Assembly (NCBI GenBank): GCA_964543375.1
Contig: CAZIYD010000005.1
Location: forward strand, 1 to 40,864
Source of the DNA: an uncultured Muribaculaceae bacterium
Lineage (GTDB): Bacteria > Bacillota_I > Bacilli_A > RF39 > UBA660
Direction: 5' to 3'
DNA length: 40,864 nucleotides
Below, in pieces: positions 1 to 37,850 of this stretch (its first letter is position 1; every line of letters starts with the position of its first letter). The notes below the pieces were generated by a model, which saw only the letters and a list, made by a program, of their open reading frames with translations, was not told the origin of the DNA and did no database searches. A program made the position numbers and the translations under genes.

Positions 1-2
1 AA

Positions 3-2510: not shown

Positions 2511-2523
2511 GTAGGAGGTATTT

Positions 2524-3267: not shown

Positions 3268-3293
3268 TACAGCAATAAAAATGTTATAACAAT

Positions 3294-3321
3294 TTGACAA
3301 GTTTGTAAAAGTATGTATAAT
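3294..3321 (+). promoter_or_regulatory. sigma-A/70 promoter with consensus -35 and -10
   Basis: TTGACA (3294-3299), 16-bp spacer, TATAAT (3316-3321), 35 bp upstream of the ATG at 3357. Confidence 0.8.
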
Positions 3322-3356
3322 AAGAAACAAATTATTCAAATAAGGGGGATTTTTTC

Positions 3357-4586: not shown

Positions 4587-4596
4587 CTCTTTTTTT
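4562..4596. terminator. Probable bidirectional intrinsic terminator
   Basis: AAAAGAG-C-TAACTA / GAAA loop / TAGTTA-A-CTCTTTT followed by a T run, between convergent genes. Confidence 0.7.
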
Positions 4597-14537: not shown

Positions 14538-15512
14538 ATGTTTAAGGATATCTATAAAGAAATAAAAAAACATGAAAGCATAGTTATTGCAAGACATATT
14601 GGAGCAGATCCAGATGCATTAGGTTCTCAGTTTGCACTTAAAGAACTTATTTTAAACACTTTTCCGAATAAAAAAGTGTATGCTGCTGGAAGTAGAGCTT
14701 CAAAATTTAAAGTAATTGGGAATACAGATATAATTAAAGAAGACTTTAATTATGAAGATTCTCTTTTAATTGTGTTAGATACTCCAATATTAAGAAGAGT
14801 TGATCTAGATAATATAGATAGGTTTAAAACCTCTATAAAAATAGATCATCATCCATTTGATGAAACATTTTGCAATATAGAATGGATAGATGATACTTGT
14901 TCTAGTGCTAGTGAAATGATAGCGGATTTATCTCTAAATACAAAGTTAGAAATGAATAAAAAAACAGCAGAATATATAATAATGGGGATTGTATCTGATT
15001 CAAATAGATTCTTATATGATAATGCAACTACTAAGACAATGCGTCTAGTTTGTGATTTAATAGATAAATTTGAAATAGATAAAAAAAACATATATGAAAA
15101 AGTATATATGAGGGATATGAGAGAAATAAGACTTCAAGGTTACATTTCAGAAAATATGATTATAACCGAAAACGGAGTTGGATATGTAGTAATAAATGAT
15201 GATATAATCAAAAAATACAACGTAGATGCAGCCTCTCCTGGTAATATGGTAAATAATTTTTCATATATAAGTGAACTTCTAGTTTGGTTAACATTCTCAG
15301 AAGATAAAAAGCAAAATCAAATTAGAGTATCAATTAGATCTAGAGGACCAATAATAAATGATGTTGCAAGTAAATACAATGGAGGAGGTCATAAATATGC
15401 CTCTGGAATAAGAATAAAAAGTTTTGACCAAGTAGATGAAATAATAAAAAGTTTAGATGAGAAGGCAAAAGAATACAAAGAGAGTATAGAGGTGGAAAAT
15501 GAAAATAACTAG
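14538..15512 (+). CDS. nrnA: DHH/DHHA1 phosphoesterase (NrnA-like oligoribonuclease/pAp phosphatase)
   Basis: HIGADPDALGS, LDTP, IDHH, DSNRF and GGGHKYASG motifs. Confidence 0.85.
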   Translation: MFKDIYKEIKKHESIVIARHIGADPDALGSQFALKELILNTFPNKKVYAAGSRASKFKVIGNTDIIKEDFNYEDSLLIVLDTPILRRVDLDNIDRFKTSIKIDHHPFDETFCNIEWIDDTCSSASEMIADLSLNTKLEMNKKTAEYIIMGIVSDSNRFLYDNATTKTMRLVCDLIDKFEIDKKNIYEKVYMRDMREIRLQGYISENMIITENGVGYVVINDDIIKKYNVDAASPGNMVNNFSYISELLVWLTFSEDKKQNQIRVSIRSRGPIINDVASKYNGGGHKYASGIRIKSFDQVDEIIKSLDEKAKEYKESIEVENENN

Positions 15513-16092
15513 TGCAGATATAAAAATAAGTGCTGTTAGACAAAGTCAATATCCAGAAACAACACTACCAGAGTTCCTAGTTGTTGGGCGTTCTAATGTT
15601 GGAAAAAGCAGTTTTATAAATACTATAATTAATAGAAAAAGCTTAGCAAGAACCTCATCTAGACCAGGCAGAACACAAACGCTTAATTTTTATTTAATAA
15701 ATAAAGACTTTTATTTGGTAGATGTTCCGGGCTATGGTTATGCTAGTACAAACAAAAAACAACAATTAAAATTTGGAAAAATGATAGAAGAATACATAGA
15801 AAACAGAGAAAATTTAAAAGAAGTATTCTTATTAATAGACTTTAGACATAAACCAACAAAAGACGATCTTACTATGTATAATTTTCTTAAATACTATAAT
15901 TTAAAAGTGGTTGTAGTTGCAACTAAAATAGATAAAATTTCAAAAAATCAAAGAATTAAAAACGAAAAAATAATAAATAGTACTTTAGATTTGGTGGTTG
16001 GAGATTCTTTAGTCACTTTCTCTAGTGTTTCTAAGGAAGGAAAAACAGAAATTCACGATATAATAGAAAAATACTTAGATTTTATTGAGTAA
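15499..16092 (+). CDS. engB: Ribosome biogenesis GTPase YsxC/EngB
   Basis: GRSNVGKSS (G1), PGRTQT, DVPGYG and TKIDK motifs. Confidence 0.94.
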   Translation: MKITSADIKISAVRQSQYPETTLPEFLVVGRSNVGKSSFINTIINRKSLARTSSRPGRTQTLNFYLINKDFYLVDVPGYGYASTNKKQQLKFGKMIEEYIENRENLKEVFLLIDFRHKPTKDDLTMYNFLKYYNLKVVVVATKIDKISKNQRIKNEKIINSTLDLVVGDSLVTFSSVSKEGKTEIHDIIEKYLDFIE

Positions 16093-16119
16093 TGAAATCT
16101 TTGTTTTTTTTTGTATTTA

Positions 16120-16128
16120 TGCTATAAT
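16120..16128 (+). promoter_or_regulatory. Extended -10 promoter for der
   Basis: TGcTATAAT lies inside the ORF-track 5' extension, which supports the ATG at 16153 as the real start. Confidence 0.6.
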
Positions 16129-16152
16129 CTACTAAGTTTGAGGGGTGATATT

Positions 16153-17460
16153 ATGAAAATTCCAACAGTAGCACTAATAGGAAAACCAAATGTAGGTAAA
16201 TCTACATTGTTTAACCGTTTTGCTGGAAAAAGAATTTCCATAGTAGATGATACCCCAGGAGTTACAAGAGATAGAGTATATAGTTTTTGCACATATCAAT
16301 CACAAAGTTTCCATTTAATAGATACTGGTGGTATAACAATAGAAGATGAAAAATTTAATAAAGAAATAAAATTACAAGCAGAACTTGCAATAGATGAAGC
16401 CGATGTAATAATTTTTATAGTAGATGGGAAGAATGGTATAACAATAGAAGATGAACTAATTGCAAACATACTTAGAAAATCAAACAAGAAGGTAATAGTA
16501 GCAATAAATAAAATAGATAATAAAAAATCTAATGAAAACATATATGATTTTTTTAAGTTTGGTTTTGATGACTATATAAAAATAAGTGCAGAACACGGAG
16601 ACAACACTAACGGCTTACTAGATTTAGTAATATCAAACTTTGATAGCATAAAAGAAATTAATTATGATAAAAACATACTAAAATTCAGTGTAATAGGTAG
16701 ACCAAACGTAGGTAAATCTAGTTTAGTAAATGCAATATTAAATGAAGATAGATTAATAGTTTCTGATATAGCAAATACTACTAGAGATTCGGTGGACACT
16801 CCTTTTACTTATAATAATAGAGATTTTGTTGTTATAGATACAGCAGGCATTAGAAAAAAAGGAAAAGTATATGAAAATATTGAAAGATATAGTGCGCTTA
16901 GATCTTTAAAAGCAATTGATAGAAGCGATGTATGCTTAATAGTAATAAATGTAGAAGAAGGAATAATAGAGCAAGATAAACATATAGCGGGTTATGCTTT
17001 AGATAGTGGAAAAGCAGTTATACTTGTCGTTAATAAGTGGGACAAATCAGAAAAAACTATAAAAGAGTTTGAAAAAGAATTAAGAAATAACTTTGCATTT
17101 ATGCCTTATGCTCCAATTGTTTATTTATCCGCACTTACAAAAAAAAGAATACATACTCTTATGCCAGAAATAATAAAAGTATATGATAATTGGATAAAAG
17201 AAATACAAACAAGTCCACTAAACAATGTTATAAATGATGCGGTATCTTTAAAACAACCACCATCATATAAAGGCAAAAGATTAAAAATATACTACGTTAA
17301 TCAAATAGATAATTCACCACCAAAATTTTTATTTCAGGTTAATGATAAAACATTAATACATTTTTCATACAAAAGATATATAGAAAATAAAATTAGAGAA
17401 TCCTTTGATTTAGAAGGAACACCAATAATATTAGTCTTTAAAAATAGAGGAGATAAATAA
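16153..17460 (+). CDS. der: Ribosome biogenesis GTPase Der/EngA (start corrected from TTG 16111 to ATG 16153)
   Basis: Two G domains (GKPNVGKST...DTGG and GRPNVGKSS...DTAG) plus a KH-like tail; AGGGGTGA RBS before 16153. Confidence 0.96.
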   Translation: MKIPTVALIGKPNVGKSTLFNRFAGKRISIVDDTPGVTRDRVYSFCTYQSQSFHLIDTGGITIEDEKFNKEIKLQAELAIDEADVIIFIVDGKNGITIEDELIANILRKSNKKVIVAINKIDNKKSNENIYDFFKFGFDDYIKISAEHGDNTNGLLDLVISNFDSIKEINYDKNILKFSVIGRPNVGKSSLVNAILNEDRLIVSDIANTTRDSVDTPFTYNNRDFVVIDTAGIRKKGKVYENIERYSALRSLKAIDRSDVCLIVINVEEGIIEQDKHIAGYALDSGKAVILVVNKWDKSEKTIKEFEKELRNNFAFMPYAPIVYLSALTKKRIHTLMPEIIKVYDNWIKEIQTSPLNNVINDAVSLKQPPSYKGKRLKIYYVNQIDNSPPKFLFQVNDKTLIHFSYKRYIENKIRESFDLEGTPIILVFKNRGDK

Positions 17461-17491
17461 AAGAGATATTAGCTTAATATCTCTTTTATTT
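17455..17491. terminator. Bidirectional terminator with perfect 17-bp arms
   Basis: AAATAAAAGAGATATTA-GCT-TAATATCTCTTTTATTT spans the der stop and the pgm 3' end. Confidence 0.8.
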
Positions 17492-18824
17492 TGTTTTCGA
17501 ATTCTTTTTGAATTTCCTTTAATCTTTCTTCTGTTTTAGCTTCAAATCTCATAGTTATGTTAGGACCCGTATTAGAAGGTCTAACGAGTGCAAAACCATC
17601 ATCAAATATTGCTTTACAACCATCTATATCTAAAACTTTATAGCCTTTTTCTTTACAATAACTTATTAACTCATTTACTAAATATTCTTTTTGTTCTTCT
17701 TCTATTTTCATTTTTATTTCATCAGTAGAATAGTATTTAGGAATATCTTTTAACAACTCACTTACTTTCATATCTGTATTACTTAATATTTCTAGCATTC
17801 TCAAAGATGCATATATTCCATCATCATATCCTGGGAACTTATCATTAAAGAATACATGACCAGATAACTCTCCTCCAAATTCAATTTTATCTGTTTCAAT
17901 TCTTGCTCTAAGATATGAATTCCCTGTTCTAGAACAAACCTTTATACCCCCTAATCTATCTATTTCATCTTCTAAAGCCTTAGAACATTTGACATCATAA
18001 AGTATTCTTTTATCATCTAATTTATGAAACAAATTATTGAGTACTACTATCATAAACTTATCTATTGGAATTAATTCTCCTTTTTCATCAACTAAACCAA
18101 TTCTATCAGCATCTCCATCATAAGCAAACCCAATATCTGCTTTTTCTTTTATTACAGTTTCTGATAAATCTTTTGTATTTTCTCTTACACTAGGATCTGG
18201 ATGATGATTTGGAAAATCTGGATTTGAATCTGTAAATAAGGGTATATACTCTAAATCTAATTTATCAAATATATCTTTAACTACTACTGAAGATGTACCA
18301 TTACCACTATCTATTACCACCTTTAATTTTCTTTGACCAAGTCTTATACTAGCAAGTGTAAAAGAAACATATCTTTCTTTTATGTCTTGATTAATAATTG
18401 TTCCTCTTCCGTTTTTAAATTCTTCGCTTTTTACTAATTCCTTAAATTCCTGTATTTGCTCACCATAAGCATTATACTTACCATTAAAAGATATTTTAAA
18501 TCCATTATATTCTTTAGGATTGTGAGACGCTGTAATCATTATTCCGCTTGTTGCATTAAACATATGAAGAGCAAAATAATACATCGGAGTAGTAACTAAT
18601 CCAATATTTATTACATCAACACCACTATCAACTATTCCTTTAGATAAACTGTCAAAAATATCGACAGAAGAAGATCTATTATCATATCCAACTATCGTAA
18701 TATATTTTTTATCATTTATAAGTCTTGTACCGAAAGCTCTTCCAATCTTATAAGATAAGTCTAAATCTATTTCACTTTCATAAATTCCCCTAATATCATA
18801 AGCTCTAAAAATATATTCTTTCAT
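17469..18824 (-). CDS. pgm: Phosphoglucomutase/phosphomannomutase (AlgC-like PMM/PGM)
   Basis: YDIRG, TASHNP (phospho-Ser), DGDADR (metal loop), GELSGH and RPSNT motifs. Confidence 0.9.
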   Translation of the reverse strand: MKEYIFRAYDIRGIYESEIDLDLSYKIGRAFGTRLINDKKYITIVGYDNRSSSVDIFDSLSKGIVDSGVDVINIGLVTTPMYYFALHMFNATSGIMITASHNPKEYNGFKISFNGKYNAYGEQIQEFKELVKSEEFKNGRGTIINQDIKERYVSFTLASIRLGQRKLKVVIDSGNGTSSVVVKDIFDKLDLEYIPLFTDSNPDFPNHHPDPSVRENTKDLSETVIKEKADIGFAYDGDADRIGLVDEKGELIPIDKFMIVVLNNLFHKLDDKRILYDVKCSKALEDEIDRLGGIKVCSRTGNSYLRARIETDKIEFGGELSGHVFFNDKFPGYDDGIYASLRMLEILSNTDMKVSELLKDIPKYYSTDEIKMKIEEEQKEYLVNELISYCKEKGYKVLDIDGCKAIFDDGFALVRPSNTGPNITMRFEAKTEERLKEIQKEFENKIKEILS

Positions 18825-18840
18825 ATTATCACCTACTTAT

Positions 18841-18889
18841 ATTATATCACACATTACTTAATGACTAACTAAGCAAATTGTGATATAAT
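18841..18889. promoter_or_regulatory. Divergent pair of extended -10 promoters for pgm and the glucan synthase
   Basis: 11-bp inverted repeat ATTATATCACA (18841-18851) / TGTGATATAAT (18879-18889); each copy reads TGaTATAAT towards its gene. Confidence 0.65.
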
Positions 18890-18914
18890 GTACAGTAGAA
18901 TAATAGGAGGCTAA

Positions 18915-21900
18915 ATGTATTTAAAAGAAAAGTTTGTTAATAGTAATAAGATAATATTTAATTATTATAAAAAAGTAGTTAAATTGACAAAAGCAAATAT
19001 AAATGTTGGAAGTACTAATGAATGGCTTATAGACAATTATTATATAATAGATTCTCAAAAGAAATCTTTGATGTATTATTTAAAATCAAAGAGTTTTAGG
19101 AAGATAAAAAAGCGTAGAGAGATATATAATTTAATTTATTCAATATTGGAAAATAAGAACTTTCAATTAAACTATAAATATTTATTTGATACACTAAATA
19201 AATATCAAGAAGAAACAAATCATTATTTTTCATATAAAGAAGTAGAATATATTTATAATATAGTAAGTCTTGCCTTAATAAATCGATTGGGAGATTTATG
19301 CTTATCTTTGGATTCAAAATTAACTCAAAAAAGAGAAATTGAGGTATTAATAGAAGAGATAAACACACATAAAAACAAACCTAATTTTAATATTGAAAAT
19401 TTAATTAAAATCGATGAAACTATTATAAACAAACCATATTATATAGAAGAACTAAATTATAAGTTGGGTGAACTTGGTATATCAGCTGAAAAACTTCAAA
19501 TAAAAATGGAAGAAATATTTAAGGAAAACGGAATAGAATTAAACAAAATAATAACAGCTCAACAAGAAGAAATAATAAACCAAAACATACTTATAATGAA
19601 TATATTTTTGTCTATAAAAAAATCATCGAAGAATCCTATAAATATAGAAAGCAATGATTTTTATTCTAACATAAACTTTGCTGAAAAGTTATTGTTAAGT
19701 GAAAAAACGGGTTACTATAAATTAATGACTGATGATAGTAAATACAGATATAGACAAGAGATAATAAAAAACAGTAAAAATAAAAGTGAATATGAATATG
19801 TTTTAAAATTAATAAATAAAGCTAATAAAGAAAACAAACATGTGGGTTTTTATTTATTTAAAAATAAAACTAGTCATAAAAAAACATATTTATATATTGC
19901 TTCTATAGTATTAACAACTTTTTTACTATGTTTGTTAGTATATCGTTATACTGATTTATTAGCTTCTATATTAATAATTATACCTATGATTGGTTTAGCA
20001 ATGGACATAGTAGTGCAAATTCTTTTGAGATTTATAGATGCAAAAGCCTTGTTTTCACTAAAGGTTGAAGATAAAATCAATGAGGAACATGCAACGATGG
20101 TTGTAATTCCAACTATTGTAAAAGATGAAAAAAGAGTAAAAAGCATGTTTGAAAATTTAGAACTATATTATTTATCGAATCTAACAGATAATTTATATTT
20201 CACACTACTCGCAGATGCTGCATCCGAAAAAGAAGAACATGCCGCATATGATGATGAAGTTGTAGAATATGGAACAAAAATATCTAGAGAATTAAACGAA
20301 AAATATGGAAAAGAAATTTTCTATTTTGCATATAGAAATAGATTTTATAGTAAAGATCAAAATAGTTATTTAGGATTTGAAAGAAAAAGAGGTGCTTTAG
20401 TAGAGTTTAATGATTTACTTTTAGGAAATTTATCAGAAGAAGAAAAAAAGTTAAGATATAGGGTTAATACTTTTGATAACTTTAATAAAAAAATAAAATA
20501 TGTAATAACATTAGATGCTGATACAAAACTTGTTTTATCTACGGCACTAAAACTCGTTGGAGTAATGATTCACCCATTAAATAAACCTATATTAAATAAA
20601 TCAAAAACAGCGGTTATTCAAGGACACGCTATGATACAACCCAAAGTAAACATAGATATAGAAGTAACAAACAAGTCAGAATATTCTCAGTTATTTGGAG
20701 GCTTAGGAGGTCTTGATGTATACTCTAGAACTACATTTGATTTATATCAAGATGTTTTTGGTGAAGGTAGTTTTGTTGGTAAGGGTATATATGATTTGGA
20801 AATGTTCCAACTATTATTAAAAGAATCTTTTCCAGATAATTTAATATTAAGTCACGATTTATTAGAGGGTGCTTACTTAAGAAGTGGTTTTGCATCTAAT
20901 ATAGAAGTTTTTGATGACTTTCCATCCAAATACTTAAATGATACTGCTAGACATCATAGATGGACAAGAGGAGATTATCAAATAATGTTTTGGTTAAAAA
21001 ACAAAGTAAAAAACAAAAAAGGAGAATTAGTAAAAAATCCAATATCTACTATTTCAAAATGGAAAATATTTGATAATTTAAGAAGACACCTTAAGTATTT
21101 GTTTTTAATGTTATTTTTATTTTATGGATTTAGTGTTGGTAAAGGAAGTCCAAATGCTTACTTAGCATTTACTATGATGATAATATCAATACCAATATTA
21201 TTCTATATAATATCTTTATTTAGGAGAAGAAAATATAGTATGTTCTTAAAATACTATTTGAATTTAATTAGAGGTATATTATCAGTAATAATAAAATCTG
21301 CTGTTGCAATATCTGTTTTACCATTTGAAACTTATCTTTATATGGATGCAATAGTTAGAGCATTATATAGACTATTTGTAAGTAAAATAAAAAGACTAGA
21401 CTGGATAACTGCAGATGAAGTTGAAAAAAGATCAAAGGGAGACATACTTACATATATAAACAACTTTGATAAATCTTTATTTATAAGCGTTATATTTGTT
21501 TTGGTATCTGTTGTTTTAAAGCCAAACTATATATCTACAACACTAGTTTTAGGGGCTATATGGGTGTTTGCCCCAATATTAATGTTTTTACTAAGTAAAG
21601 ACTTTAAAAGAAAAAAAGAATACTTATCTGATACGGTTTTATCAGAGTATGAAAAATTAGCGCACAAAACATGGAGATATTTTGAACATTATTTAGTAAA
21701 AAAATATAATTACTTGATCCCAGATAACTATCAATTAAATAGAAGAAATAAGTTGGATTATAGAACGTCTTCTACTAATATAGGTTTTTCATTAATCGCG
21801 GTAATATCTGCATACGAACTTAAATTTATTAAATTAGAAGAAGCTATAGATAAAATAAAAAACATAATAAATACAATAGAGGGATTAGAAAAATGGCATG

Positions 21901-24900
21901 GTCATTTATATAATTGGTATAATATTTTAGATACTAAGAAAATGAATCCTTATTTTGTATCATCAGTAGATAGTGGGAACCTAATTGTTTGTTTATTTAC
22001 AACTAAAGAATTTTTAAATTCAAAAGGAGATTATGAACCTTTAGTAAGCAAAATAGAAAAGATAATAAATGATACTAGGTTTGATCAACTGTACGATAAA
22101 GAATTAGATGTTTTTTCAATCGGATTTGATGCGGGTTTAGACACAATGTCTAACTATAATTATGATAAATTTTTATCAGAAAGCAGACTAGTTAGTTATA
22201 TTGCGATTGCTATGAATCAAGTTCCTTATAGACACTGGTTTTCATTAGACAAAAGTTTAACCAAATATAGGTTTAGAAAAGGTTTAATATCTTGGAACGG
22301 AACAGCTTTTGAATATTTTATGCCTCTTATATTTATGGAGTCTTTTCCGTATACTTTATTAGATGAAACTTATTCATTTGGTCATTATGTTCAAAAAGCT
22401 TTTATAAAGGAGGTGGATTCAAGACTTCCTTGGGGAATTACAGAATCTGCTTATAATGATTTAGATGATTCACAAAACTATAAATATAAGGCTTTTGGTG
22501 TACCATATTTAAAGTTTGCAGATACAAAGAAACCTAGAATAGTAGTTTCACCATATGGTTCTATATTAGCAGCACCCAAATACCCAATTTCTGTGTATAA
22601 CAATTTAAATAAATTTAAAAAGTACAATATGGAGGGGGAATATGGTTATTATGAGGCTTATGATGCCGAAGAAAAAGAAGTTGTAAAAACATATTATGCT
22701 CATCATCAAGGAATGATAATTGCTGCGATAACAAATCTTTTAAAAGATAATGTAATTCAAAAATACTTTAACCAAGATAAAAGAATAAAATCTATGGAAA
22801 TATTACTAAAAGAAAAATCACAACTTAAGCCATATATTGATTTAAAAATAGAAAAATATAGAAAATACGACTATAATAGATCAGATAAAGATATACCGGT
22901 TAGATTTCAAAGCGGAATAAAAGAAATTCCCGAATATGGAATTCTTTCCAATGGTCTTTATACAACATTATTAAACGATAGAGGTATAGGCTTTACAAAG
23001 TATAAAAACCTTCAAATAAATAGATATAGAGCAGTACCAGATGAACCTTATGGATTATTCTTATTTATAAAGGATTTATCTAACAATGTTGTTTGGACAA
23101 ACACTTATGAGCCATATATGAAAGAACCAGATAAATATAATGTAACATTTGAACCGGGTACAATAAAATATATTAGAGAAGATAATCTTATAATAACTAA
23201 AACAGATGTTGTTGTAACAAAAGAGCATACAGCAGAGATAAGAAAGATTGTTATAAATAACTATAATATAAAAGACGTCGAATTAGAGTTAACTTCCTTT
23301 GGTGAGGTTATACTTGCAAGAACAGAGGAAGACGTTGCACATAGAGCATTTAATGGGGTTTCCATTTCAGCAGATTTTGATATTGATACACAAAGTTTAA
23401 TCTTTAGAAGACATTCTAGAACTAAAGAACTCGTTGAGTACTTCCTTGCACATAGAATGCTAGTAATAGATGACGATTCAGAAACTAGTTTTGAAACATC
23501 TAGAGCTAACTTTTTAGGAAGAAATAATGATTTAAATAAAGCAGATGCAATATTAAAAAACAAAAAATTATCTAATGATAAAAATGCTTTACTCGATCCT
23601 ATTATGAGTTTAAGAAAAAAAATTACATTGAAAGCCAATAAGCAAAAAACAATTTATTTAGTTACTGGTTTTGGAAAATCTAAAGAACAGGTTTTAGAAA
23701 TACTGGATATTTATGACAATCCAGAAACTATGAAATCAACATTTAGAGAATCAGAAATGTTTAGTAATATATTAGACAGTTATTCAAATTTAAATTCAAA
23801 TCAAATATTCCTATATAATCATATGTTAAAGAAAATATATGGTTATTCACCATATGAATTAGAAAAAGAACAGCTTTTATTAACTAATACAAAATCAAAA
23901 AATGAAATATGGAAGTATGGAATATCTGATAACTGGCCAATAATCACGGTTATAATAAACGACTTTGAAGGCATAGGAGTTGCTAAACAGATACTTAAAG
24001 CTTATGAATATTATAAAAAAAGATCACTTTATATAGACATAGTAATTTTAAATAAAGAACAAGATTCAAAGAAGGATACAATAAATAAATATATTTATGA
24101 TATTTTGTATAAAATAAATGCTCAAAATAATTTTGAAGATAATTTTGGACAAGTTTTTGTTTTAGATGAATTTAATGAAGAAGATGAATCTCTTTTCAAA
24201 TTAGTATCTAAACTATACTTTGAAACTTCTCAATTAAAAGCATCAGATAATATATTTAGTAAAATAGAAAAAGAATTATCAGAATATATTCAAATAAAAT
24301 ATCCACCTATGTTACTAGAGAAAAAAGAAATAAAGGAATATGGAGAGTTTATAAATAACGGTTTAGAATATAAGATAAACACAATAAATACTCCAACCCC
24401 TTGGTCAAATATTCTTACTAATGGTGAATTTGGAAGCGTTATAACAAATAATTTGGGAGGATTTACATACTACGGAAACAGTAGAGAATACAAGATAAGT
24501 GCTTGGAGTAACGACTCTTCAAGAGATCCAAGAAGTGAAAACATAATAATAAACAATGAATCATTAAGTATAGATGAAACTATACATGGTTTTGGATACT
24601 CTAAGTTTTATACTAACAATTCAAATTATGAAATAAACACTAAGGTCTTTGTAGGAAGAGATAATGTAAAAATATATGAATTAGAAATTACAAATAAATT
24701 AAAAGATAATAAGTCTCTTCCAATAAAATTTATGATATCTCCAGTTTTAGGTACTTCAAAAGAATACAATTATCCTTATGTAATAGCCGAAGGAAACAAT
24801 ACATTAAACGCAATGTTTTTACAAAATAAATACTCATCTCCAATTTTTAAAGAAAATGAAGTGTTTGTATCATCAACAGAAAAAATCACAGATTTTGATA

Positions 24901-26546
24901 TTTATAATGACTTTAAATCCATATCTATAGCTTTAAATATAAATAAAAATGAAACAAAGAAAGTATCATTTATAGTTGGGGCTAGTACTGATAATAATAA
25001 ATTAATAGAAAAATACTCAAAATCTGAAAACATTGAAAAAGAATACAATAAAGTATTAGAATTCTGGGAAGATAAGTTGTCATTTATTAAAGTTAATACT
25101 CCAGATAAAACATTCAATTATGCAATAAATAATTGGTATTTATACCAAACGTATGCATCTAGATTATATGCTAAAACAGGCTTATATCAAGTTGGAGGGG
25201 CATTTGGATTTAGAGATCAACTGCAAGATTCTATGTCAATACTTTATAGTGATCCTAATTATTCAAAATATATAATATTAAATTGTGCATCTCATCAATT
25301 TGAAAGTGGAGAAGTTTTACACTGGTGGCATGAAGATTTAAATTTAGGTTCAAGAACAAAATTTTCAGATGATTATTTATGGTTAGTTTTTGTAACAATG
25401 GAATATATAAGAGTTACAGGAGACTATTCAATACTTAAAGAGGACGTAAAATTTATAGAAGGACCAGAATTGGTAGGAACCGAAGGAGAGAAGGGAATAA
25501 ATTACACGAAATCATCTAAATCGGATACTTTATATAATCATTTAAAGTTAGCAATTGATCTATCTTTATCTAAATTTGGAAAACATGGTATTCCACTTAT
25601 TGGTGTTGGAGACTGGAATGATGGTATGAATAAAGTTGGACATAAAGGTAAGGGCGAGAGTGTTTGGGTTGGAATGTTCTTATATGATATATTAAATAAA
25701 TTTGAAGATATTATGAAACACATGAAAGAAAAAACAACTATTATTTCAAATTACAAAAAAGAACAAGATAAACTATTAAATTCTTTATCTACAACTTGTT
25801 TTGATGGAAATTGGTACTTAAGAGCTTTCTTTGATGATGGAACACCTATGGGAGCAAAAAATAACGAAGAAGGTGAAATTGACTTACTTGTTCAATCTTG
25901 GAGTATACTTGCTAATGTAGCGGATCCTATAAGACAAAAGAAAGTAATAGAAGAAGTAGAATCAAGACTAGTAGATAAAAAAAGCGGAATAATTAAATTG
26001 CTTACTCCACCATTTACAAGTAATGAGAAAAATCCTGGTTATATAAGTTATTACTTAAAAGGTATAAGAGAAAATGGGGGACAATATACTCACGCTGCTT
26101 TATGGTACATAAAAGCATTGTTAAAATACGGAGAAAAAAATAGAGCTTACGAATATTATTCTATGATAAACCCAATGAATAGAAACACAGAAACATATAA
26201 AACTGAACCTTATGTTATTGCTGCAGACATATACTCTAACAAATCTCATAAAGGTAGAGGTGGTTGGACTTGGTATACTGGTTCTGCTGGTTGGGCATAT
26301 AAGATTGGAGTGGAAGATATATTAGGATTACAAAAAACAGGAACTAAACTTGTAATTAATCCAAACGTACCTGATAATTGGGATAACTTTGAAATGGATT
26401 ATAAATTTGAAACAACAATCTATAAAATAAAAGCAGAAAGAGGAAAACAAAACAAAATCAAATTAGATGGAAAAGAAGTTAAAGAAATATCTCTAAAAGA
26501 TGATAAATTAATACATAATATACAGATAATCTTTGGAGGCAAATAA
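18915..26546 (+). CDS. cgs: Cyclic beta-1,2-glucan synthase-like protein (Cgs/NdvB/ChvB type: GT84 + GH189-type cyclisation domain + GH94 phosphorylase)
   Basis: EWLIDNYY; ERKRGAL, TLDADT (DxD), SHDLLEG, RHHRWTRGD; three hydrophobic hairpins (about 6 TM); SSTNIG, WHGHLYNWY, FEYFMP, PWGITESAY, AHHQGM; GFRDQLQD, GDWNDG, ENGGQYTHA, WYTGSAGW. Confidence 0.9.
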   Translation: MYLKEKFVNSNKIIFNYYKKVVKLTKANINVGSTNEWLIDNYYIIDSQKKSLMYYLKSKSFRKIKKRREIYNLIYSILENKNFQLNYKYLFDTLNKYQEETNHYFSYKEVEYIYNIVSLALINRLGDLCLSLDSKLTQKREIEVLIEEINTHKNKPNFNIENLIKIDETIINKPYYIEELNYKLGELGISAEKLQIKMEEIFKENGIELNKIITAQQEEIINQNILIMNIFLSIKKSSKNPINIESNDFYSNINFAEKLLLSEKTGYYKLMTDDSKYRYRQEIIKNSKNKSEYEYVLKLINKANKENKHVGFYLFKNKTSHKKTYLYIASIVLTTFLLCLLVYRYTDLLASILIIIPMIGLAMDIVVQILLRFIDAKALFSLKVEDKINEEHATMVVIPTIVKDEKRVKSMFENLELYYLSNLTDNLYFTLLADAASEKEEHAAYDDEVVEYGTKISRELNEKYGKEIFYFAYRNRFYSKDQNSYLGFERKRGALVEFNDLLLGNLSEEEKKLRYRVNTFDNFNKKIKYVITLDADTKLVLSTALKLVGVMIHPLNKPILNKSKTAVIQGHAMIQPKVNIDIEVTNKSEYSQLFGGLGGLDVYSRTTFDLYQDVFGEGSFVGKGIYDLEMFQLLLKESFPDNLILSHDLLEGAYLRSGFASNIEVFDDFPSKYLNDTARHHRWTRGDYQIMFWLKNKVKNKKGELVKNPISTISKWKIFDNLRRHLKYLFLMLFLFYGFSVGKGSPNAYLAFTMMIISIPILFYIISLFRRRKYSMFLKYYLNLIRGILSVIIKSAVAISVLPFETYLYMDAIVRALYRLFVSKIKRLDWITADEVEKRSKGDILTYINNFDKSLFISVIFVLVSVVLKPNYISTTLVLGAIWVFAPILMFLLSKDFKRKKEYLSDTVLSEYEKLAHKTWRYFEHYLVKKYNYLIPDNYQLNRRNKLDYRTSSTNIGFSLIAVISAYELKFIKLEEAIDKIKNIINTIEGLEKWHGHLYNWYNILDTKKMNPYFVSSVDSGNLIVCLFTTKEFLNSKGDYEPLVSKIEKIINDTRFDQLYDKELDVFSIGFDAGLDTMSNYNYDKFLSESRLVSYIAIAMNQVPYRHWFSLDKSLTKYRFRKGLISWNGTAFEYFMPLIFMESFPYTLLDETYSFGHYVQKAFIKEVDSRLPWGITESAYNDLDDSQNYKYKAFGVPYLKFADTKKPRIVVSPYGSILAAPKYPISVYNNLNKFKKYNMEGEYGYYEAYDAEEKEVVKTYYAHHQGMIIAAITNLLKDNVIQKYFNQDKRIKSMEILLKEKSQLKPYIDLKIEKYRKYDYNRSDKDIPVRFQSGIKEIPEYGILSNGLYTTLLNDRGIGFTKYKNLQINRYRAVPDEPYGLFLFIKDLSNNVVWTNTYEPYMKEPDKYNVTFEPGTIKYIREDNLIITKTDVVVTKEHTAEIRKIVINNYNIKDVELELTSFGEVILARTEEDVAHRAFNGVSISADFDIDTQSLIFRRHSRTKELVEYFLAHRMLVIDDDSETSFETSRANFLGRNNDLNKADAILKNKKLSNDKNALLDPIMSLRKKITLKANKQKTIYLVTGFGKSKEQVLEILDIYDNPETMKSTFRESEMFSNILDSYSNLNSNQIFLYNHMLKKIYGYSPYELEKEQLLLTNTKSKNEIWKYGISDNWPIITVIINDFEGIGVAKQILKAYEYYKKRSLYIDIVILNKEQDSKKDTINKYIYDILYKINAQNNFEDNFGQVFVLDEFNEEDESLFKLVSKLYFETSQLKASDNIFSKIEKELSEYIQIKYPPMLLEKKEIKEYGEFINNGLEYKINTINTPTPWSNILTNGEFGSVITNNLGGFTYYGNSREYKISAWSNDSSRDPRSENIIINNESLSIDETIHGFGYSKFYTNNSNYEINTKVFVGRDNVKIYELEITNKLKDNKSLPIKFMISPVLGTSKEYNYPYVIAEGNNTLNAMFLQNKYSSPIFKENEVFVSSTEKITDFDIYNDFKSISIALNINKNETKKVSFIVGASTDNNKLIEKYSKSENIEKEYNKVLEFWEDKLSFIKVNTPDKTFNYAINNWYLYQTYASRLYAKTGLYQVGGAFGFRDQLQDSMSILYSDPNYSKYIILNCASHQFESGEVLHWWHEDLNLGSRTKFSDDYLWLVFVTMEYIRVTGDYSILKEDVKFIEGPELVGTEGEKGINYTKSSKSDTLYNHLKLAIDLSLSKFGKHGIPLIGVGDWNDGMNKVGHKGKGESVWVGMFLYDILNKFEDIMKHMKEKTTIISNYKKEQDKLLNSLSTTCFDGNWYLRAFFDDGTPMGAKNNEEGEIDLLVQSWSILANVADPIRQKKVIEEVESRLVDKKSGIIKLLTPPFTSNEKNPGYISYYLKGIRENGGQYTHAALWYIKALLKYGEKNRAYEYYSMINPMNRNTETYKTEPYVIAADIYSNKSHKGRGGWTWYTGSAGWAYKIGVEDILGLQKTGTKLVINPNVPDNWDNFEMDYKFETTIYKIKAERGKQNKIKLDGKEVKEISLKDDKLIHNIQIIFGGK

Positions 26547-27751
26547 TGATAAAGTTTGATTTTTCAACCTACAATAATGTAAGTGATATATCTAAATATC
26601 GAGAAAAACTAAAAAATATTGAAAATTTCTTTTCTAAACACAAAGAAAGTATGGGATGGTTTGATATAAACAACTTATGTAATGAGGATAAACTTTTTAA
26701 AATTAGAGAAAAAGCTTTATATATAAAAGAAAACTCAGACATCTTATTAGTCGTGGGCATTGGTGGATCTTACATGGGAAGTCAAGCAGTAATAGATGCA
26801 CTTAGTCCATACATAATAAAAGAATCAAAAGTAATATTCGTTGGAACATCCCTTTCTACTGATTATTTAAATGAAATTTTAAAATTAATAGAAACTAAAT
26901 CTGTAATTATGAATGTAATATCTAAATCTGGAAATACTTTAGAAGTTCTTGCTACTTATGATGTTTTACTTTCAAAAATGAAATCAAAATATAATGAAGA
27001 AGAATTAAAGAAAAGGGTAATAATTACAACAGAACCATCAATAAATAACACTTTATATAATGATGCTAAAAAAGACGGTTTTGAAATAATAGAAACTTTT
27101 AAAAATATAGGTGGAAGATTTTCTGTTTTCACTGAAGCGGGTTTATTACCCATATCAGTCTCAGGTATAAATATAGATAATTTAATAAATGGTGCAAAAG
27201 AAGCAATGGATGATTTTAATGATGAAGCAAGATATGCCATAATAAGAGATATAATGATTGATAAAGGGAAGTTAGTTGAAGCATACATAGCATATGAACC
27301 TAAACTAAATTACTTCTTAGAGTGGTTAAAACAACTGTACGCAGAGTCATTAGGAAAAGAAGAAAGTGGAGTTCTTCCAATAAGTTTAATAAATACTAGA
27401 GATCTTCATTCTATGGGTCAATATATACAAGATGGTCCAAAAATTATATTTGAAACACTAATTATAATTAACAACAACAAAGATAATATATATCTAGAAA
27501 GATATAGAAAAAATTTATCAGAGATAAATGAAATTGCATATAAAGCAGTATCCAAAGCACACTTTGATGGTGAAATAAACTCAAGTATAATAGAACTAAC
27601 AGAATTAAATGAAGCAAATATTGGTTATTTATTACAATACTTCATGGTGTCTGTTACTATAAGTGGACTTTTAGAAAATAATGATGAAGTATTCACACAA
27701 AATGGAGTAGAAGCATATAAAAAAGTATTAAATAACATGTTAAAAGATTGA
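26546..27751 (+). CDS. pgi: Glucose-6-phosphate isomerase
   Basis: GIGGSYMG, SKSGNTLE, GGRFSV, QLYAESLGK, DLHSMGQYIQDG and GVEAYKK motifs; TAATG overlap with cgs. Confidence 0.93.
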   Translation: MIKFDFSTYNNVSDISKYREKLKNIENFFSKHKESMGWFDINNLCNEDKLFKIREKALYIKENSDILLVVGIGGSYMGSQAVIDALSPYIIKESKVIFVGTSLSTDYLNEILKLIETKSVIMNVISKSGNTLEVLATYDVLLSKMKSKYNEEELKKRVIITTEPSINNTLYNDAKKDGFEIIETFKNIGGRFSVFTEAGLLPISVSGINIDNLINGAKEAMDDFNDEARYAIIRDIMIDKGKLVEAYIAYEPKLNYFLEWLKQLYAESLGKEESGVLPISLINTRDLHSMGQYIQDGPKIIFETLIIINNNKDNIYLERYRKNLSEINEIAYKAVSKAHFDGEINSSIIELTELNEANIGYLLQYFMVSVTISGLLENNDEVFTQNGVEAYKKVLNNMLKD

Positions 27752-27765
27752 TTACTCAATCTTTT
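27742..27765. terminator. Bidirectional terminator formed from both stop codons
   Basis: Perfect 10-bp arms AAAAGATTGA / TCAATCTTTT with a TTAC loop. Confidence 0.75.
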
Positions 27766-28241
27766 TTCGTTAGTTTTTTAATTGCCATATCTTTGTGATC
27801 TTTGGTAAATCCAACGTTCATAAAACTCGTTTGAACTAATTTATCTATAATATTAAGTTCTTCATAATTGAATGTTTCATCGTCTATTATTACAAATGAT
27901 TCTATAGGATTATCTTTTAGATATTCTAATATCTCATCTCCTCTATAATTAGATGGTTTTTTTAATTTATCATATATATAAAGGTTATTTTCATAAAAAA
28001 CTTGTAAAAAACTTTCCCCTTCTTTATTTAAAGCAATCATATTATCATCAAAGTAACTCTTCCATGAAGATGTTAGTACTATCTTTGCTTTAGTTTCTTC
28101 TACTAATTCTTTTAAGTTTTTTATCATATCCTTATCTATTGGAGGCACTCTTAAACCAGTTTCTTTCCATACTTTATGAATTTCAATAAAAGTTTCTTGT
28201 GTATTTAAAACCCCATCTATATCTAAAAAAATTACTTTCAT
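27756..28241 (-). CDS. Stand-alone HAD phosphatase resembling the Swiss-Army-Knife RNA-repair HAD family (start corrected to 28241)
   Basis: VIFLDIDGVLN, KIVLTSSW, RGDEI and FVIIDD motifs; an AAGGAG RBS precedes the second Met. Confidence 0.75.
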   Translation of the reverse strand: MKVIFLDIDGVLNTQETFIEIHKVWKETGLRVPPIDKDMIKNLKELVEETKAKIVLTSSWKSYFDDNMIALNKEGESFLQVFYENNLYIYDKLKKPSNYRGDEILEYLKDNPIESFVIIDDETFNYEELNIIDKLVQTSFMNVGFTKDHKDMAIKKLTKKD

Positions 28242-28374
28242 AACTTTCTCCTTTGTCATATTTTAGCATAAATATTGTAAAGAAAAGGACAAAAAGTGCA
28301 TAATACAAAGGAAAAAAGAACACATTTTATATAAAAGTATTGCTTTTTTCTATAAATAATGGTATTTATATACA

Positions 28375-28397
28375 TATAAGCATAGCCTATGCTTATA
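28375..28397. repeat. Near-perfect palindrome upstream of hup
   Basis: TATAAGCATAG-C-CTATGCTTATA (11-bp arms). Confidence 0.7.
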
Positions 28398-28423
28398 AAT
28401 AAAGATTATAGGAGGTAATATTT

Positions 28424-28696
28424 ATGACAAAGGCAGAATTAGTTGAATTCATGGCAGAAAAAGCAGGATTAACAAAAGCTGATGCAGGACGTGCATTAGA
28501 TGCATTTATGGAAGGTGTTACAAAAGGACTAAAGAAAGAAGGTAAAGTAGCTTTAGTTGGATTTGGAACATTCAATAAAAAGAAAAGAGCAGCTAGAACA
28601 GCTCGTAATCCACAAACTGGTGCAACTGTTAAGATTCCTGCAAGAAATGCAGTATCATTTAAAGTTGGAAGCAAGTTAAAAGAAGCAGTTAATTAA
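28424..28696 (+). CDS. hup: Histone-like DNA-binding protein HU
   Basis: MTKAELVE...LVGFGTF...RAARTARNPQTG...FKVGSKLKEAV; AGGAGGT RBS. Confidence 0.97.
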   Translation: MTKAELVEFMAEKAGLTKADAGRALDAFMEGVTKGLKKEGKVALVGFGTFNKKKRAARTARNPQTGATVKIPARNAVSFKVGSKLKEAVN

Positions 28697-28705
28697 TTAT
28701 TAACT

Positions 28706-28733
28706 AAAAACTACCTTTTAGGTAGTTTTTTTT
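28706..28733 (+). terminator. Intrinsic terminator after hup
   Basis: AAAAACTACCT-TTT-AGGTAGTTTTT followed by extra Ts. Confidence 0.85.
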
Positions 28734-28734
28734 A

Positions 28735-28743
28735 TGATATAAT
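28735..28743 (+). promoter_or_regulatory. Extended -10 promoter for gatCAB
   Basis: TGaTATAAT immediately after the hup terminator; GAGGTG RBS before 28760. Confidence 0.55.
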
Positions 28744-28759
28744 TTATAAGAGGTGTTTT

Positions 28760-29029
28760 ATGTATAAATTAACTAAAGAAGATGTATTACACGTTGCTTC
28801 TTTATCTAAACTTAAAATAGATAATATAGAAAAATATCAAAAAGATTTAGAGGATATATTAAATAGTATAAAAGATATAGAGGCACTAGATGTTGCCTCA
28901 GATATAATGATATCTCCTACAAAAAAGAGTAATGTATTTTCAGATTACTCGAATAATAAAGAGATTGATGTTTTGAGTAACGTTAAAGATAAATCTGGAA
29001 ACTTTATTAAAGTGGAGGATATGAGATGA
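28760..29029 (+). CDS. gatC: Asp/Glu-tRNA amidotransferase subunit C
   Basis: LTKEDVLHVASLSKLKI N-terminus; position before gatA with an ATGA overlap. Confidence 0.85.
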   Translation: MYKLTKEDVLHVASLSKLKIDNIEKYQKDLEDILNSIKDIEALDVASDIMISPTKKSNVFSDYSNNKEIDVLSNVKDKSGNFIKVEDMR

Positions 29030-30447
29030 GTAATTATTTTGATCTATCGTTAAAAGAAATAAATGAAAAGTTAAAGAGAAAAGAAATAAAACCTATAGAT
29101 TTGGTTAATGAAGCATTTGATAGAATAGAAAAACATAAAGAATATAATGCTTTTATAACTTTAAATAAAGAAGAAGCATTAAATAAAGCAAAAGAATTAG
29201 AAAAAAAAGAAGTAAATAATATATTGTTTGGAATCCCTATTGCAGTAAAGGATAATACAATAACTAAAGGTTTACTTACTACATCTGGATCAAAGATGTT
29301 ATTTGATTTTATACCAACATATGAATCTACAGTAATGAATAAGCTAAATAAATGTAATGCGATAGTAATTGGTAAAACTAATATGGATGAATTTGCAATG
29401 GGATCAACTGGTGAGACTTCTTACTATGGTTCTACTTTAAATGCTTTAGATAAGTCTTTGATTCCTGGTGGTTCATCTAGTGGTAGTGCTGTTGCTGTAT
29501 CACTTAAACTAAGTCCAATATCGCTTGGTAGTGATACTGGAGGTTCTATTAGACAACCATCTAGTTTTAACAATGTAGTCGGCTTAAAACCAACTTATGG
29601 AAGAGTATCTAGGTATGGTTTAATAGCGTTTTCCTCATCATTAGATCAAATTGGACCAATAACAAACGGTGTAGAAGATAATGCCCTACTATTAAATGAA
29701 ATAGTGGGTTTAGATGGAAAAGATTTAAATACGGTAGAAAGTAATGAAGATTTCACTAAACTTATAGGGAAAGATATAAGCGGAATGAAAGTTTGTATTC
29801 CTAATTTTTATATGGCTAGTTTAGATAGAGAAATAAAGGATAAGGTTTTAGATGTTGCTAATTTTTTGAAAGCAAATAATGTAGAAGTTGAATACGTAGA
29901 TATAGATTATATAGAATATGCTGTGCCGTTATATCAAACAATTGCTCTAGCGGAAGCTTCATCTAATTTAGCAAGATTTGATGGTATAAGATATGGATAT
30001 AAAACTTCTAAAAAAACTAAATCTTTAGATGAGTTTTATTCTTATACAAGAGAGGAAGCTTTTGGAGAAGAAGTAAAAAGAAGAATAATGATAGGAACAT
30101 ATGTATTAAGTGGTGAGAATGTAGATATTTACTACAACAAAGCACTAGCTATAAGAAATTTATTATCTAATAATTTATATGCATTATTTAATAAATATGA
30201 TTTGATTATTGGACCTACAACAACCACATTACCATATAAATTAGGAACTAAGAAAAGCGCTAATAATAGTTTTATGGATGATATTTTAACTATACCTGTT
30301 AATATGGCTGGTCTTCCTGCAATGAGTTTACCAGTTGGCACTAATGCCTCACCAATTGGACTTCAAATAATAGGTAATATGTTTGATGAAAAAACAATCT
30401 ATAAGTTAGCAAGTTTTATAGAGAAAAATTATAAGAGGGGTGAATAG
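29026..30447 (+). CDS. gatA: Asp/Glu-tRNA amidotransferase subunit A
   Basis: Amidase signature: IAVKDN, GKTNMDEFAMGS, PGGSSSGSA, GSDTGGSIRQP, SSNLARFDG. Confidence 0.96.
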   Translation: MSNYFDLSLKEINEKLKRKEIKPIDLVNEAFDRIEKHKEYNAFITLNKEEALNKAKELEKKEVNNILFGIPIAVKDNTITKGLLTTSGSKMLFDFIPTYESTVMNKLNKCNAIVIGKTNMDEFAMGSTGETSYYGSTLNALDKSLIPGGSSSGSAVAVSLKLSPISLGSDTGGSIRQPSSFNNVVGLKPTYGRVSRYGLIAFSSSLDQIGPITNGVEDNALLLNEIVGLDGKDLNTVESNEDFTKLIGKDISGMKVCIPNFYMASLDREIKDKVLDVANFLKANNVEVEYVDIDYIEYAVPLYQTIALAEASSNLARFDGIRYGYKTSKKTKSLDEFYSYTREEAFGEEVKRRIMIGTYVLSGENVDIYYNKALAIRNLLSNNLYALFNKYDLIIGPTTTTLPYKLGTKKSANNSFMDDILTIPVNMAGLPAMSLPVGTNASPIGLQIIGNMFDEKTIYKLASFIEKNYKRGE

Positions 30448-31904: not shown

Positions 31905-32381
31905 ATGAAAAAGTTTTATGATAAATATAAGGTAATAATATACATAGTTATAGTTTTAATCTTTATAGGGTTAGCTTTTTTAGCATTAAAAAACTATTTA
32001 TTCCCAGATGATGATAAATCTGTATATGGTAGTAGATTAAATGGAATTGAAGATGTTAAGTTAGATTCTAATAGAATGCTCGCTATAAAAAACGGATATG
32101 CAACAGATAACAATATAGAGAGTATCGTAGTTGATTTAAAAGGAAGAAAAATTAATTTAATAATAAAAGGAAAAACAGACTATACTATAGAATATGCCAA
32201 AAAAACATTGCTAGAAAATTTAAAAGTTTTTCAAACAAAAGAATTAAACTATTATGATATAGAATTTTTTGTAACTAACGAACCATTAAAGTACAACATG
32301 ATCGGGTATAAAAACAAGAAATCAGATGTTATTGTATGGAGCGAGTATAAAGAAGAGGTAATAAATGAAACCAAAAACTAA
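31905..32381 (+). CDS. Hypothetical protein with an N-terminal membrane anchor (start corrected to ATG 31905)
   Basis: GAGGTGA RBS; TM VIIYIVIVLIFIGLAFLAL followed by a small extracellular domain. Confidence 0.7.
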   Translation: MKKFYDKYKVIIYIVIVLIFIGLAFLALKNYLFPDDDKSVYGSRLNGIEDVKLDSNRMLAIKNGYATDNNIESIVVDLKGRKINLIIKGKTDYTIEYAKKTLLENLKVFQTKELNYYDIEFFVTNEPLKYNMIGYKNKKSDVIVWSEYKEEVINETKN

Positions 32382-34401: not shown

Positions 34402-34409
34402 GGTGTATT

Positions 34410-37836: not shown

Positions 37837-37850
37837 TACTATATTTTTTT
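37820..37850. terminator. Bidirectional terminator
   Basis: 12-bp arms AAAAAAATATAG / CTATATTTTTTT with a 7-nt loop, between convergent genes. Confidence 0.7.

Follow-up and report, generated by a model that had tools for sequence, protein, structure and literature searches.

The gene of a compact synthase for cyclic beta-1,2-glucan, linked to hexose-phosphate enzymes in a monoderm Bacilli lineage

In the searchable literature the cyclic beta-1,2-glucans that have been described are for the most part periplasmic or secreted factors belonging to Gram-negative symbionts and pathogens. What, then, does a bacterium for which no periplasm is indicated do with such a ring, and why should the gene for its synthase stand between genes of central hexose-phosphate metabolism? 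[quoted passage not shown] It is noted that the Cgs family and its presence in Firmicutes are already known, while the literature found on Cgs, GH189 and GT84 (structural and enzymological work and surveys of carbohydrate-active enzymes) assigns no role to cyclic beta-1,2-glucan in a monoderm. A previous reading of the window, made from the letters alone (the sequence-only reading), suggested that the glucan may be a carbon reserve or a compatible solute. What is new here is that the linkage of cgs to pgi is found in 14 of 15 Bacilli-clade genomes and in many flank contexts, that pgm, cgs and pgi stay together in genomes with a Cgs identity as low as 49%, and that the enzyme is a member of a compact clade.

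The synthase, its active sites and its flanking genes

The three open reading frames (ORFs) of the locus were found exactly where the sequence-only reading had placed them (Table 1), with cgs bracketed by a divergent pgm of the PMM/PGM class and a same-strand pgi, the identities of the two flanking genes following from matches in PDB, Pfam and NCBIfam and from their motifs. In AT-rich, stop-rich DNA the 7.6-kb open frame of cgs is no chance event. Against the cryo-EM structure of Agrobacterium tumefaciens (Atu) Cgs (8rf9/8rf0) the cgs product gives E=0 and 1198 bits, the match being split into three stretches that between them take in the GT, CY and GP regions; the two enzymes are only 28-33% identical. 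Against the cyclisation domain of the Thermoanaerobacter italicus enzyme (TiCGS, 8wy1), the founder of GH189, the E-value is 2.9e-101 for the full protein and 4e-104 for the GH189 segment alone. At E<=1e-20 the window enzyme has 929 homologues. Pfam recognises in it a Glycoamylase domain (residues 1087-1287), two GH94 supersandwich stretches and a GH94 catalytic domain (2050-2471, 2.8e-108). The GH94 region aligns to Atu residues 2393-2792. Residues 1-928 draw no Pfam match at a threshold as loose as E<=1, and the whole protein has no family in NCBIfam; because neither collection has a model matching the GT84 part, the GT84 assignment is made via homology to the solved Cgs.

The key residues described for Atu Cgs (PMC10901819) and for TiCGS (PMC10834661) were transferred to the window enzyme via residue-by-residue alignments, with the equivalences given in Table 1. 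The residues so mapped in GT84, GH189 and GH94, and with them the priming tyrosine Y603, are invariant in an alignment of 13 sequences of 44-76% identity (A1). The two GT84 motifs lie exactly at the positions previously given for them, the DxD motif with D534 from nucleotide 20514 and the motif R679-H-H-R-W683 at 20949-20963. With homology to the solved Cgs over the full length, it is thus upheld that the window encodes a complete Cgs in which the three catalytic sets are intact. Hydropathy shows hydrophobic segments at residues 324-342, 349-367, about 727-741, 750-768, 855-873 and 875-893 and an amphipathic stretch at 784-802. This points to about six putative transmembrane (TM) helices, as had been claimed, two of them ahead of the GT domain and about four behind it, consistent with the six-TM layout of the solved enzyme. 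In the Agrobacterium cryo-EM structure all soluble domains are cytoplasmic (PMC10901819), and we infer the same of the soluble domains of the window enzyme. The chemistry, too, we infer from the homologous enzymes of Agrobacterium and T. italicus, in the latter of which the GH189 domain carries out transglycosylation exclusively, without hydrolysis (PMC10834661). In NCBI records, homologues with 76% identity (P0242-P0250) appear as 'glucoamylase family protein', as 'glycosyl transferase' or as 'hypothetical protein', so that the public annotation misses the Cgs function.

The product of pgm has all four Pfam PGM_PMM domains, with the PMM/PGM of P. aeruginosa (4mrq, 1.7e-95) as its best PDB match, and the motifs TASHNP (98), DGDADR (236), GELSGH (318) and RPSNT (415) are intact; with NCBIfam PgmG it scores 388.6 bits, under the cutoff of 600. 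The candidate assignment as a bacterial GlmM was rejected, since the glmM model, whose cutoff is 447, gives it 193 bits and its closest matches are PMM/PGM. The product of pgi has 3ifs as its best PDB match (7.9e-76), contains SKSG, GGRFS and ESLGK, and matches NCBIfam PRK14097 at 3e-104 with 349 bits, under the cutoff of 443.

Concerning the expression of the locus, the stop codon of cgs and the start codon of pgi share one base (TAATG) and a GGAGG stands 7 nt upstream of pgi, from which pgi is predicted to be translationally coupled to cgs. In the spacer between pgm and cgs a consensus scan finds a promoter-like site for cgs at 18861-18889 (ATGACT-17-TATAAT with the TG extension of an extended -10 element). 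The region would then form a two-promoter module, with pgm leaving the 90-nt spacer on one side and cgs-pgi on the other. A riboswitch in the cgs leader was considered and ruled out, the 90 nt being too short and no Rfam family or tRNA being found in the window. Over window positions 15000-30000, assemblies labelled as RNA (from a biogas fermenter and from wastewater) give patchy contigs of low depth covering pgm, cgs, pgi, HU and gatA. The depths over pgm, cgs and pgi are like those over neighbouring genes, HU is the deepest, and the library labels are ambiguous, so that these contigs lend weak support to transcription of the three genes. One RNA-labelled contig skips 3110 nt within cgs (21875 to 24986) with only 20 nt of support on one side, which is probably an assembly artefact.

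Table 1. Features of the window: genes, domains of Cgs, equivalent catalytic residues and envelope markers
Feature	Position (nt)	Strand	Remarks
pgm	17469-18824	-	451 aa; PMM/PGM-class phosphohexomutase, divergent from cgs
pgm-cgs spacer	18825-18914	.	90 nt; promoter-like site for cgs and AGGAGG ribosome-binding site
cgs	18915-26546	+	2543 aa; homologue of Agrobacterium Cgs
pgi	26546-27751	+	401 aa; glucose-6-phosphate isomerase, Bacillus-type
TM1-TM2	19884-20015	+	aa 324-367; hydropathy peaks 2.2-2.5, four K/R preceding TM1
GT84 glycosyltransferase domain	20043-21101	+	aa ~377-729; aligned to Atu Cgs 470-811
TM3-TM6 region	21093-21593	+	aa ~727-893, including the amphipathic stretch 784-802; from hydropathy
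GH189 cyclisation (transglycosylase) domain	21621-22853	+	aa ~903-1313; aligned to 8wy1
GH94 phosphorylase region	22929-26546	+	supersandwich, Rossmann-like insert, catalytic domain aa 2050-2471; PF06165, PF17167
GT84 D434			Atu D527 (UDP-coordinating Asp)
GT84 D534/D536			Atu D624/D626 (DxD)
GT84 D648			Atu D739 (catalytic base)
GT84 R682-W683			Atu R773 (RW motif)
Y603			Atu Y694 (priming tyrosine, IF1h loop; glucosylation predicted by homology)
GH189 E1089			TiCGS E1356 (acid/base)
GH189 E1133			TiCGS E1400 (supporting Glu)
GH189 E1177			TiCGS E1442 (nucleophile)
GH189 H1263/H1264			TiCGS H1536/H1537
GH94 D2101			Atu D2393
GH94 D2236 (in GDWNDG)			Atu D2528
UppP	4595-5395	-	envelope marker
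LtaS (lipoteichoic acid synthase)	35246-37240	+	Pfam LtaS_N and Sulfatase; monoderm marker
LCP (LytR-CpsA-Psr) with PASTA	37849-39936	-	PF03816 3.2e-40; PASTA 1.3e-06; monoderm marker

Conservation of the locus and the compact form of the enzyme

Is the placement of cgs beside pgm and pgi an accident? To the comparison belong 15 distinct low-GC genomes of Bacilli type with enough flanking sequence. In all but one of them pgi lies downstream of cgs on the same strand, within 130 nt in 11 of these 14 and often overlapping, and 0.6-5.6 kb away in the other three; the overlap or near-abutment of the window is repeated at loci L083, L085, L166, L167, L021, L013 and L087. Beyond the pair the flanks are mostly unrelated (a P-type ATPase, a GH25 lysozyme, an HTH protein, DUF308, AAA/DUF4143, UvrD helicases, Ddl and others), and in L008, L009, L013, L021, L087, L167 and L083 the pair is kept with both flanks replaced, down to 43% Cgs identity. 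The divergent pgm upstream of cgs is found in the five closest genomes (L007, L085, L166 and L083 among them), where the trio stands next to three different left flanks, namely der, Fib_succ/pilin genes and LemA with genes of unknown product. The linkage of cgs to hexose-phosphate enzymes, to which the sequence-only reading had pointed, is thus not accidental, with pgi present amid variable flanks across the clade and pgm in the closest genomes. Within the Bacilli clade the synthase is in this sense hard-wired to central hexose-phosphate metabolism. No relative of pgi or pgm stands beside cgs at the high-GC, proteobacterial or other non-Firmicute loci examined.

The order HU-gatCAB-GGDEF-BrkB downstream is also kept in the closest relatives. 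A gene of 167 aa with a HAD_SAK_2 domain (27756-28259, minus strand), convergent with pgi at a gap of 4 nt, was considered as a further part of the module and ruled out, since it is missing in L085, L166 and L083, where HU directly follows pgi. Genes for Cof-type HAD phosphatases come after pgi in L008 and L172.

Compared with Agrobacterium Cgs, the window enzyme has the same domain order (N-terminal domain, two predicted TM helices, GT84, four predicted TM helices, cyclase, GH94), and it retains the priming tyrosine as well as the catalytic residues at each of the three sites. It is, by contrast, shorter by about 270-290 residues and without the 4-helix dimer motif of about 120 residues, its gene is coupled to pgi and divergent from pgm, and its host is a monoderm of the Bacilli with no periplasm. 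In the Agrobacterium structure the 4-helix motif protrudes and mediates back-to-back dimers; it is a feature of that solved structure and does not define the family, and it is missing from the cyclase domain of the window enzyme, in which neither Atu residues 1113-1265 nor 8wy1 chain residues 149-300 have a counterpart. With TiCGS the window enzyme shares the Firmicute origin and the conserved E1356, E1400, E1442 and H1536/H1537, while it is without the insert of about 150 residues that TiCGS has (chain 149-300). Characterisation of TiCGS has been confined to the isolated domain, and the enzyme has been given no physiological role (PMC10834661).

The difference is readily seen in the spacing between the motifs LYNWY and FEYxMP, which is 134 aa in the window enzyme. 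It lies at 132-145 aa in the set made up of the window enzyme, its low-GC relatives and gut Bacteroidales, and at 255-353 aa in proteobacterial and most Clostridia-type enzymes. On alignment, the window enzyme can be placed in a compact Cgs subfamily of about 2550 aa without the 4-helix dimerisation insert (about 120-150 residues). The compact clade takes in low-GC Bacilli metagenome-assembled genomes (MAGs), Bacteroidales of gut and rumen, and a few further loci; the Bacteroidales MAGs with a compact Cgs (L005, L010, L012, L014, L024 and L168-L171) have 40-49% identity to the window enzyme, and neither pgi nor pgm is present at any of these Bacteroidales loci. In a neighbour-joining tree without support values, the Bacteroidales sequences are nested inside the Bacilli clade, the Bacilli clade lies within a wider Firmicute radiation, and the Clostridia-type enzymes form a separate branch. 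This topology suggests that the compact Cgs has an old monoderm history and may have passed later, by transfer between phyla, to the gut Bacteroidales. A scan of metagenome contigs for close relatives gave two loci only, at 44% identity, the remainder being distant Cgs of soil type. The locus shows a large and old Firmicute branch of Cgs, including a compact form widespread in uncultured Bacilli of gut, rumen and digester, and the compact enzyme without the dimerisation insert may be a simpler scaffold for cyclic glucan production.

Precursor supply and the fate of the ring

[quoted passage not shown] From what is known of the families, a route of seven steps is expected. PGI would convert fructose-6-phosphate to glucose-6-phosphate, PMM/PGM would convert the latter to alpha-glucose-1-phosphate, and a GalU encoded elsewhere would make UDP-glucose. 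The membrane-anchored Cgs would then glucosylate its own tyrosine Y603 on the cytoplasmic side, the GT84 site would lengthen the beta-1,2 chain, the GH94 site would trim over-long chains with phosphate, returning glucose-1-phosphate to the same pool, and the GH189 site would release the chain as a ring of about 17-25 glucoses, by which the primer would be regenerated.

Why the supply of precursor is proposed as the meaning of the clustering can be seen from other Firmicutes. In Paenibacillus cremeus galU divergently adjoins cgs (L025:4196-5077, minus strand; TIGR01099 408.7 bits, cutoff 326.8). In two Clostridiaceae-type loci a PGM of 563 aa and an NTP_transferase-LbH-PGM fusion (810-860 aa across the loci) lie directly upstream of cgs, and in a third locus the fusion is there alone (the stretches are L032:3726-8005, L088:5562-9781 and L103:7158-9740). 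A ROK sugar kinase is upstream of cgs at L124:8986-9843, its best match being BglK-like and below cutoff. Since nucleotidyltransferases act in synthesis only, the theme shared by these arrangements is the supply of UDP-glucose, from fructose-6-phosphate through glucose-6-phosphate and glucose-1-phosphate. Precursor supply explains the clustering of pgm and pgi at least as well as recycling does, and it needs no catabolic return. The clustering is therefore best read as a supply line to the main consumer of UDP-glucose, and it is no proof of a catabolic return path.

Several points weigh against this proposal. The galU gene is not in the window, and the products of both pgm and pgi fall under the NCBIfam equivalog cutoffs, while a PMM/PGM could act on mannose phosphates. 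Moreover, pgi and pgm are amphibolic and, in a small genome, probably housekeeping genes, so that the operon may reflect co-expression with central metabolism and not a dedicated pathway. The promoter-like site of cgs is a consensus match only, and in this AT-rich DNA such matches are no commoner than in shuffles. Finally, synteny within one lineage is partly inherited and is not independently selected. The last point can be carried further, to the view that cgs was merely inserted in an ancestor beside housekeeping pgi and pgm and that the linkage is inherited gene order with no functional meaning. That pgi and pgm are genes of central metabolism, and that the block from HU to BrkB downstream is equally retained in the closest relatives, is consistent with such a view. 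Against it, the cgs-pgi pair and its overlap or near-abutment survive replacement of both flanks at down to 43% Cgs identity; in addition, unrelated Firmicutes have independently tied cgs to other steps of the UDP-glucose route. We therefore regard a purely inherited order as improbable.

It was proposed in the sequence-only reading that the ring may stay in the cytoplasm and serve there as a glycogen-like carbon reserve or as a solute of low osmolarity, with GT84 building it, GH94 freeing glucose-1-phosphate from it, and PGM and PGI feeding this to glycolysis. Much in the locus is in harmony with the proposal. A monoderm envelope has no periplasm to hold a neutral glucan of 3 kDa, all of the Cgs chemistry is cytoplasmic by homology, the catalytic residues of GH94 do not vary within the clade (though mutation of the catalytic acid of the Agrobacterium GH94 domain, D2528A, has only a minor effect), and the linkage to two amphibolic enzymes is tight and conserved. 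There is also a formal parallel to glycogen metabolism (GlgC/GlgA, GlgP and Pgm), in which a nucleotide-sugar-dependent synthase and a phosphorylase yielding glucose-1-phosphate are encoded with a phosphoglucomutase and all are cytoplasmic. The parallel breaks down at the product, however. The predicted product of the window enzyme is a closed beta-1,2 ring, and GH94 works at non-reducing ends, of which a ring has none; GH189 transglycosylates without hydrolysis, and no report of ring opening by it was found in the literature. In principle, the opening of rings with transfer onto an acceptor is conceivable for a retaining transglycosylase. Neither an endo-beta-1,2-glucanase nor a stand-alone oligoglucan phosphorylase is found in any of the 15 Bacilli-clade neighbourhoods, no debranching or ring-opening enzyme was identified, and the synthase, again unlike that of glycogen, is a membrane protein with a protein-tyrosine primer. 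Further, the genes tied to cgs in other Firmicutes (galU and the NTP-transferase fusions) are strictly anabolic, and closely related compact enzymes occur in the diderm Bacteroidales. Of the earlier proposal, then, what stands is that synthesis is cytoplasmic by homology and that GH94, PGM and PGI are present, while the return of glucose-1-phosphate to glycolysis by GH94 fails in the form proposed, the ring offering no end to an exo-phosphorylase and no ring-opening enzyme being linked. The reserve model as a whole is thus doubtful. The sole candidate beta-glucosidase near any Bacilli-clade cgs is encoded by a GH3 (Glyco_hydro_3) gene of one lineage, at a distance of 5.5 kb downstream (L172:19091-19632, L173:13938-14479).

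The opposite possibility is that an unlinked transporter exports the ring and that its place of action is outside the membrane, as a secreted or wall-zone factor in interaction with a host or community or as a cyclodextrin-like carrier of hydrophobic molecules in gut or digester habitats, with pgi and pgm supplying precursors only. In the systems described in the literature consulted, Cgt does export cyclic beta-1,2-glucan, and the action of the glucan lies outside the cytoplasm, although a review also lists an iron-storage role for it. The use of the compact enzyme by diderm Bacteroidales as well, and the habitat (pig gut, wastewater and bioreactors), agree with such a function. On the other hand, no exporter gene is found in the window or in the 15 related neighbourhoods, a Gram-positive wall would not hold a neutral ring of 3 kDa, one UTP would be lost with each glucose, and the literature searches brought up no monoderm culture reported to yield cyclic beta-1,2-glucan. 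The sequence-only reading had correctly stated that the window has no ABC exporter and no galU (a domain scan gives neither ABC_tran nor NTP_transferase in any scanned ORF of at least 100 aa). The missing exporter carries no evidential weight, because an ABC half-transporter lies within 10 kb of cgs at only 2 of 166 loci of all phyla in a motif scan, which is perhaps too strict and has no Agrobacterium-type positive control; the lack of an exporter in the window is thus what would be expected under export also. Exporter adjacency was accordingly dropped as a criterion. An extracellular role of this kind we consider possible yet somewhat unlikely.

In comparison with the osmoregulated periplasmic glucan systems (Cgs with the ABC exporter Cgt/NdvA), the synthase family is the same, while the window host has no indicated periplasm or outer membrane, so that the periplasmic compartment of those systems is lacking, and no exporter gene accompanies cgs, though exporters are seldom linked anywhere.

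Returning to the supply module that we propose, the subsequent fate of the ring can be put in graded terms. Export via an unlinked transporter, to the wall zone or to the medium, has in our estimate an even chance; retention in the cytoplasm falls somewhat short of that, and a mobilisable reserve, as one part of retention, is unlikely. A more specific form, which we find less likely still and offer as speculation, is that the compact Cgs and the co-expressed PGI and PGM would constitute a self-contained beta-1,2-glucan carbon buffer, where rings made in the cytoplasm from UDP-glucose would be opened again by the retaining transglycosylase of Cgs itself, with the tyrosine-linked primer or a free oligosaccharide as acceptor, followed by GH94 phosphorolysis to glucose-1-phosphate. 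If that were true, a single protein would correspond in function to glycogen synthase and phosphorylase together, in a broad clade of uncultured Bacilli with small genomes. In any case the conserved cgs-pgi(-pgm) module provides a concrete handle on whether the ring is exported, retained or recycled.

Host lineage and other features of the window

The argument above depends on the envelope of the host. The markers ltaS, LCP and uppP named in the sequence-only reading are real (Table 1), and a monoderm-type Bacilli host is upheld; with LtaS, LCP-PASTA and UppP encoded in the window, neither a periplasm nor an outer membrane is indicated. In relatives a class A PBP, DivIVA, RecU, a Mur ligase (MurE-type) and Ddl adjoin cgs, and the relatives of GatB and of Cgs are named as Bacilli, Mollicutes, Tenericutes or Mycoplasmatota MAGs. 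It is thus well supported that the host belongs to a walled, monoderm, low-GC lineage of the Bacilli. A Bacteroidales or Muribaculaceae host, as given by some MAG labels, is ruled out by the 26% GC, by the LtaS/LCP/gatCAB context and by the Bacilli-named relatives of GatB. The closest GTDB genome (L003/L007; CAZKBC010000045.1 / CAZKBC010000020.1) also bears the label 'uncultured Muribaculaceae bacterium', but its contigs are of 26% GC and show thiI-ackA-DHH-ysxC-der-pgm-cgs-pgi, a Firmicute order of genes; either the labelling or the binning of this genome is probably at fault. The window sequence recurs in bioreactor, wastewater and pig-gut metagenomes. Proteins identical to those at its edges (LCP and the 247-aa ORF) led to no longer contig in other assemblies.

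Some other features of the window are recorded here. At its left end (1-4586) are three consecutive ORFs without a confident Pfam family, one of more than 835 aa running off the end, with a weak Big_2 match, and two of 247 and 409 aa. One block, at 32365-37240, consists of the genes for a GGDEF protein (678 aa), for a BrkB/YihY membrane protein and for LtaS, of which the GGDEF-BrkB part is kept in L085 and L166, with LtaS next to it in L085 and not in L166. A protein of 555 aa with a DUF4015 putative glycosyl-hydrolase domain (4.3e-70) is encoded at 8672-10339 on the plus strand and is also kept in L085.

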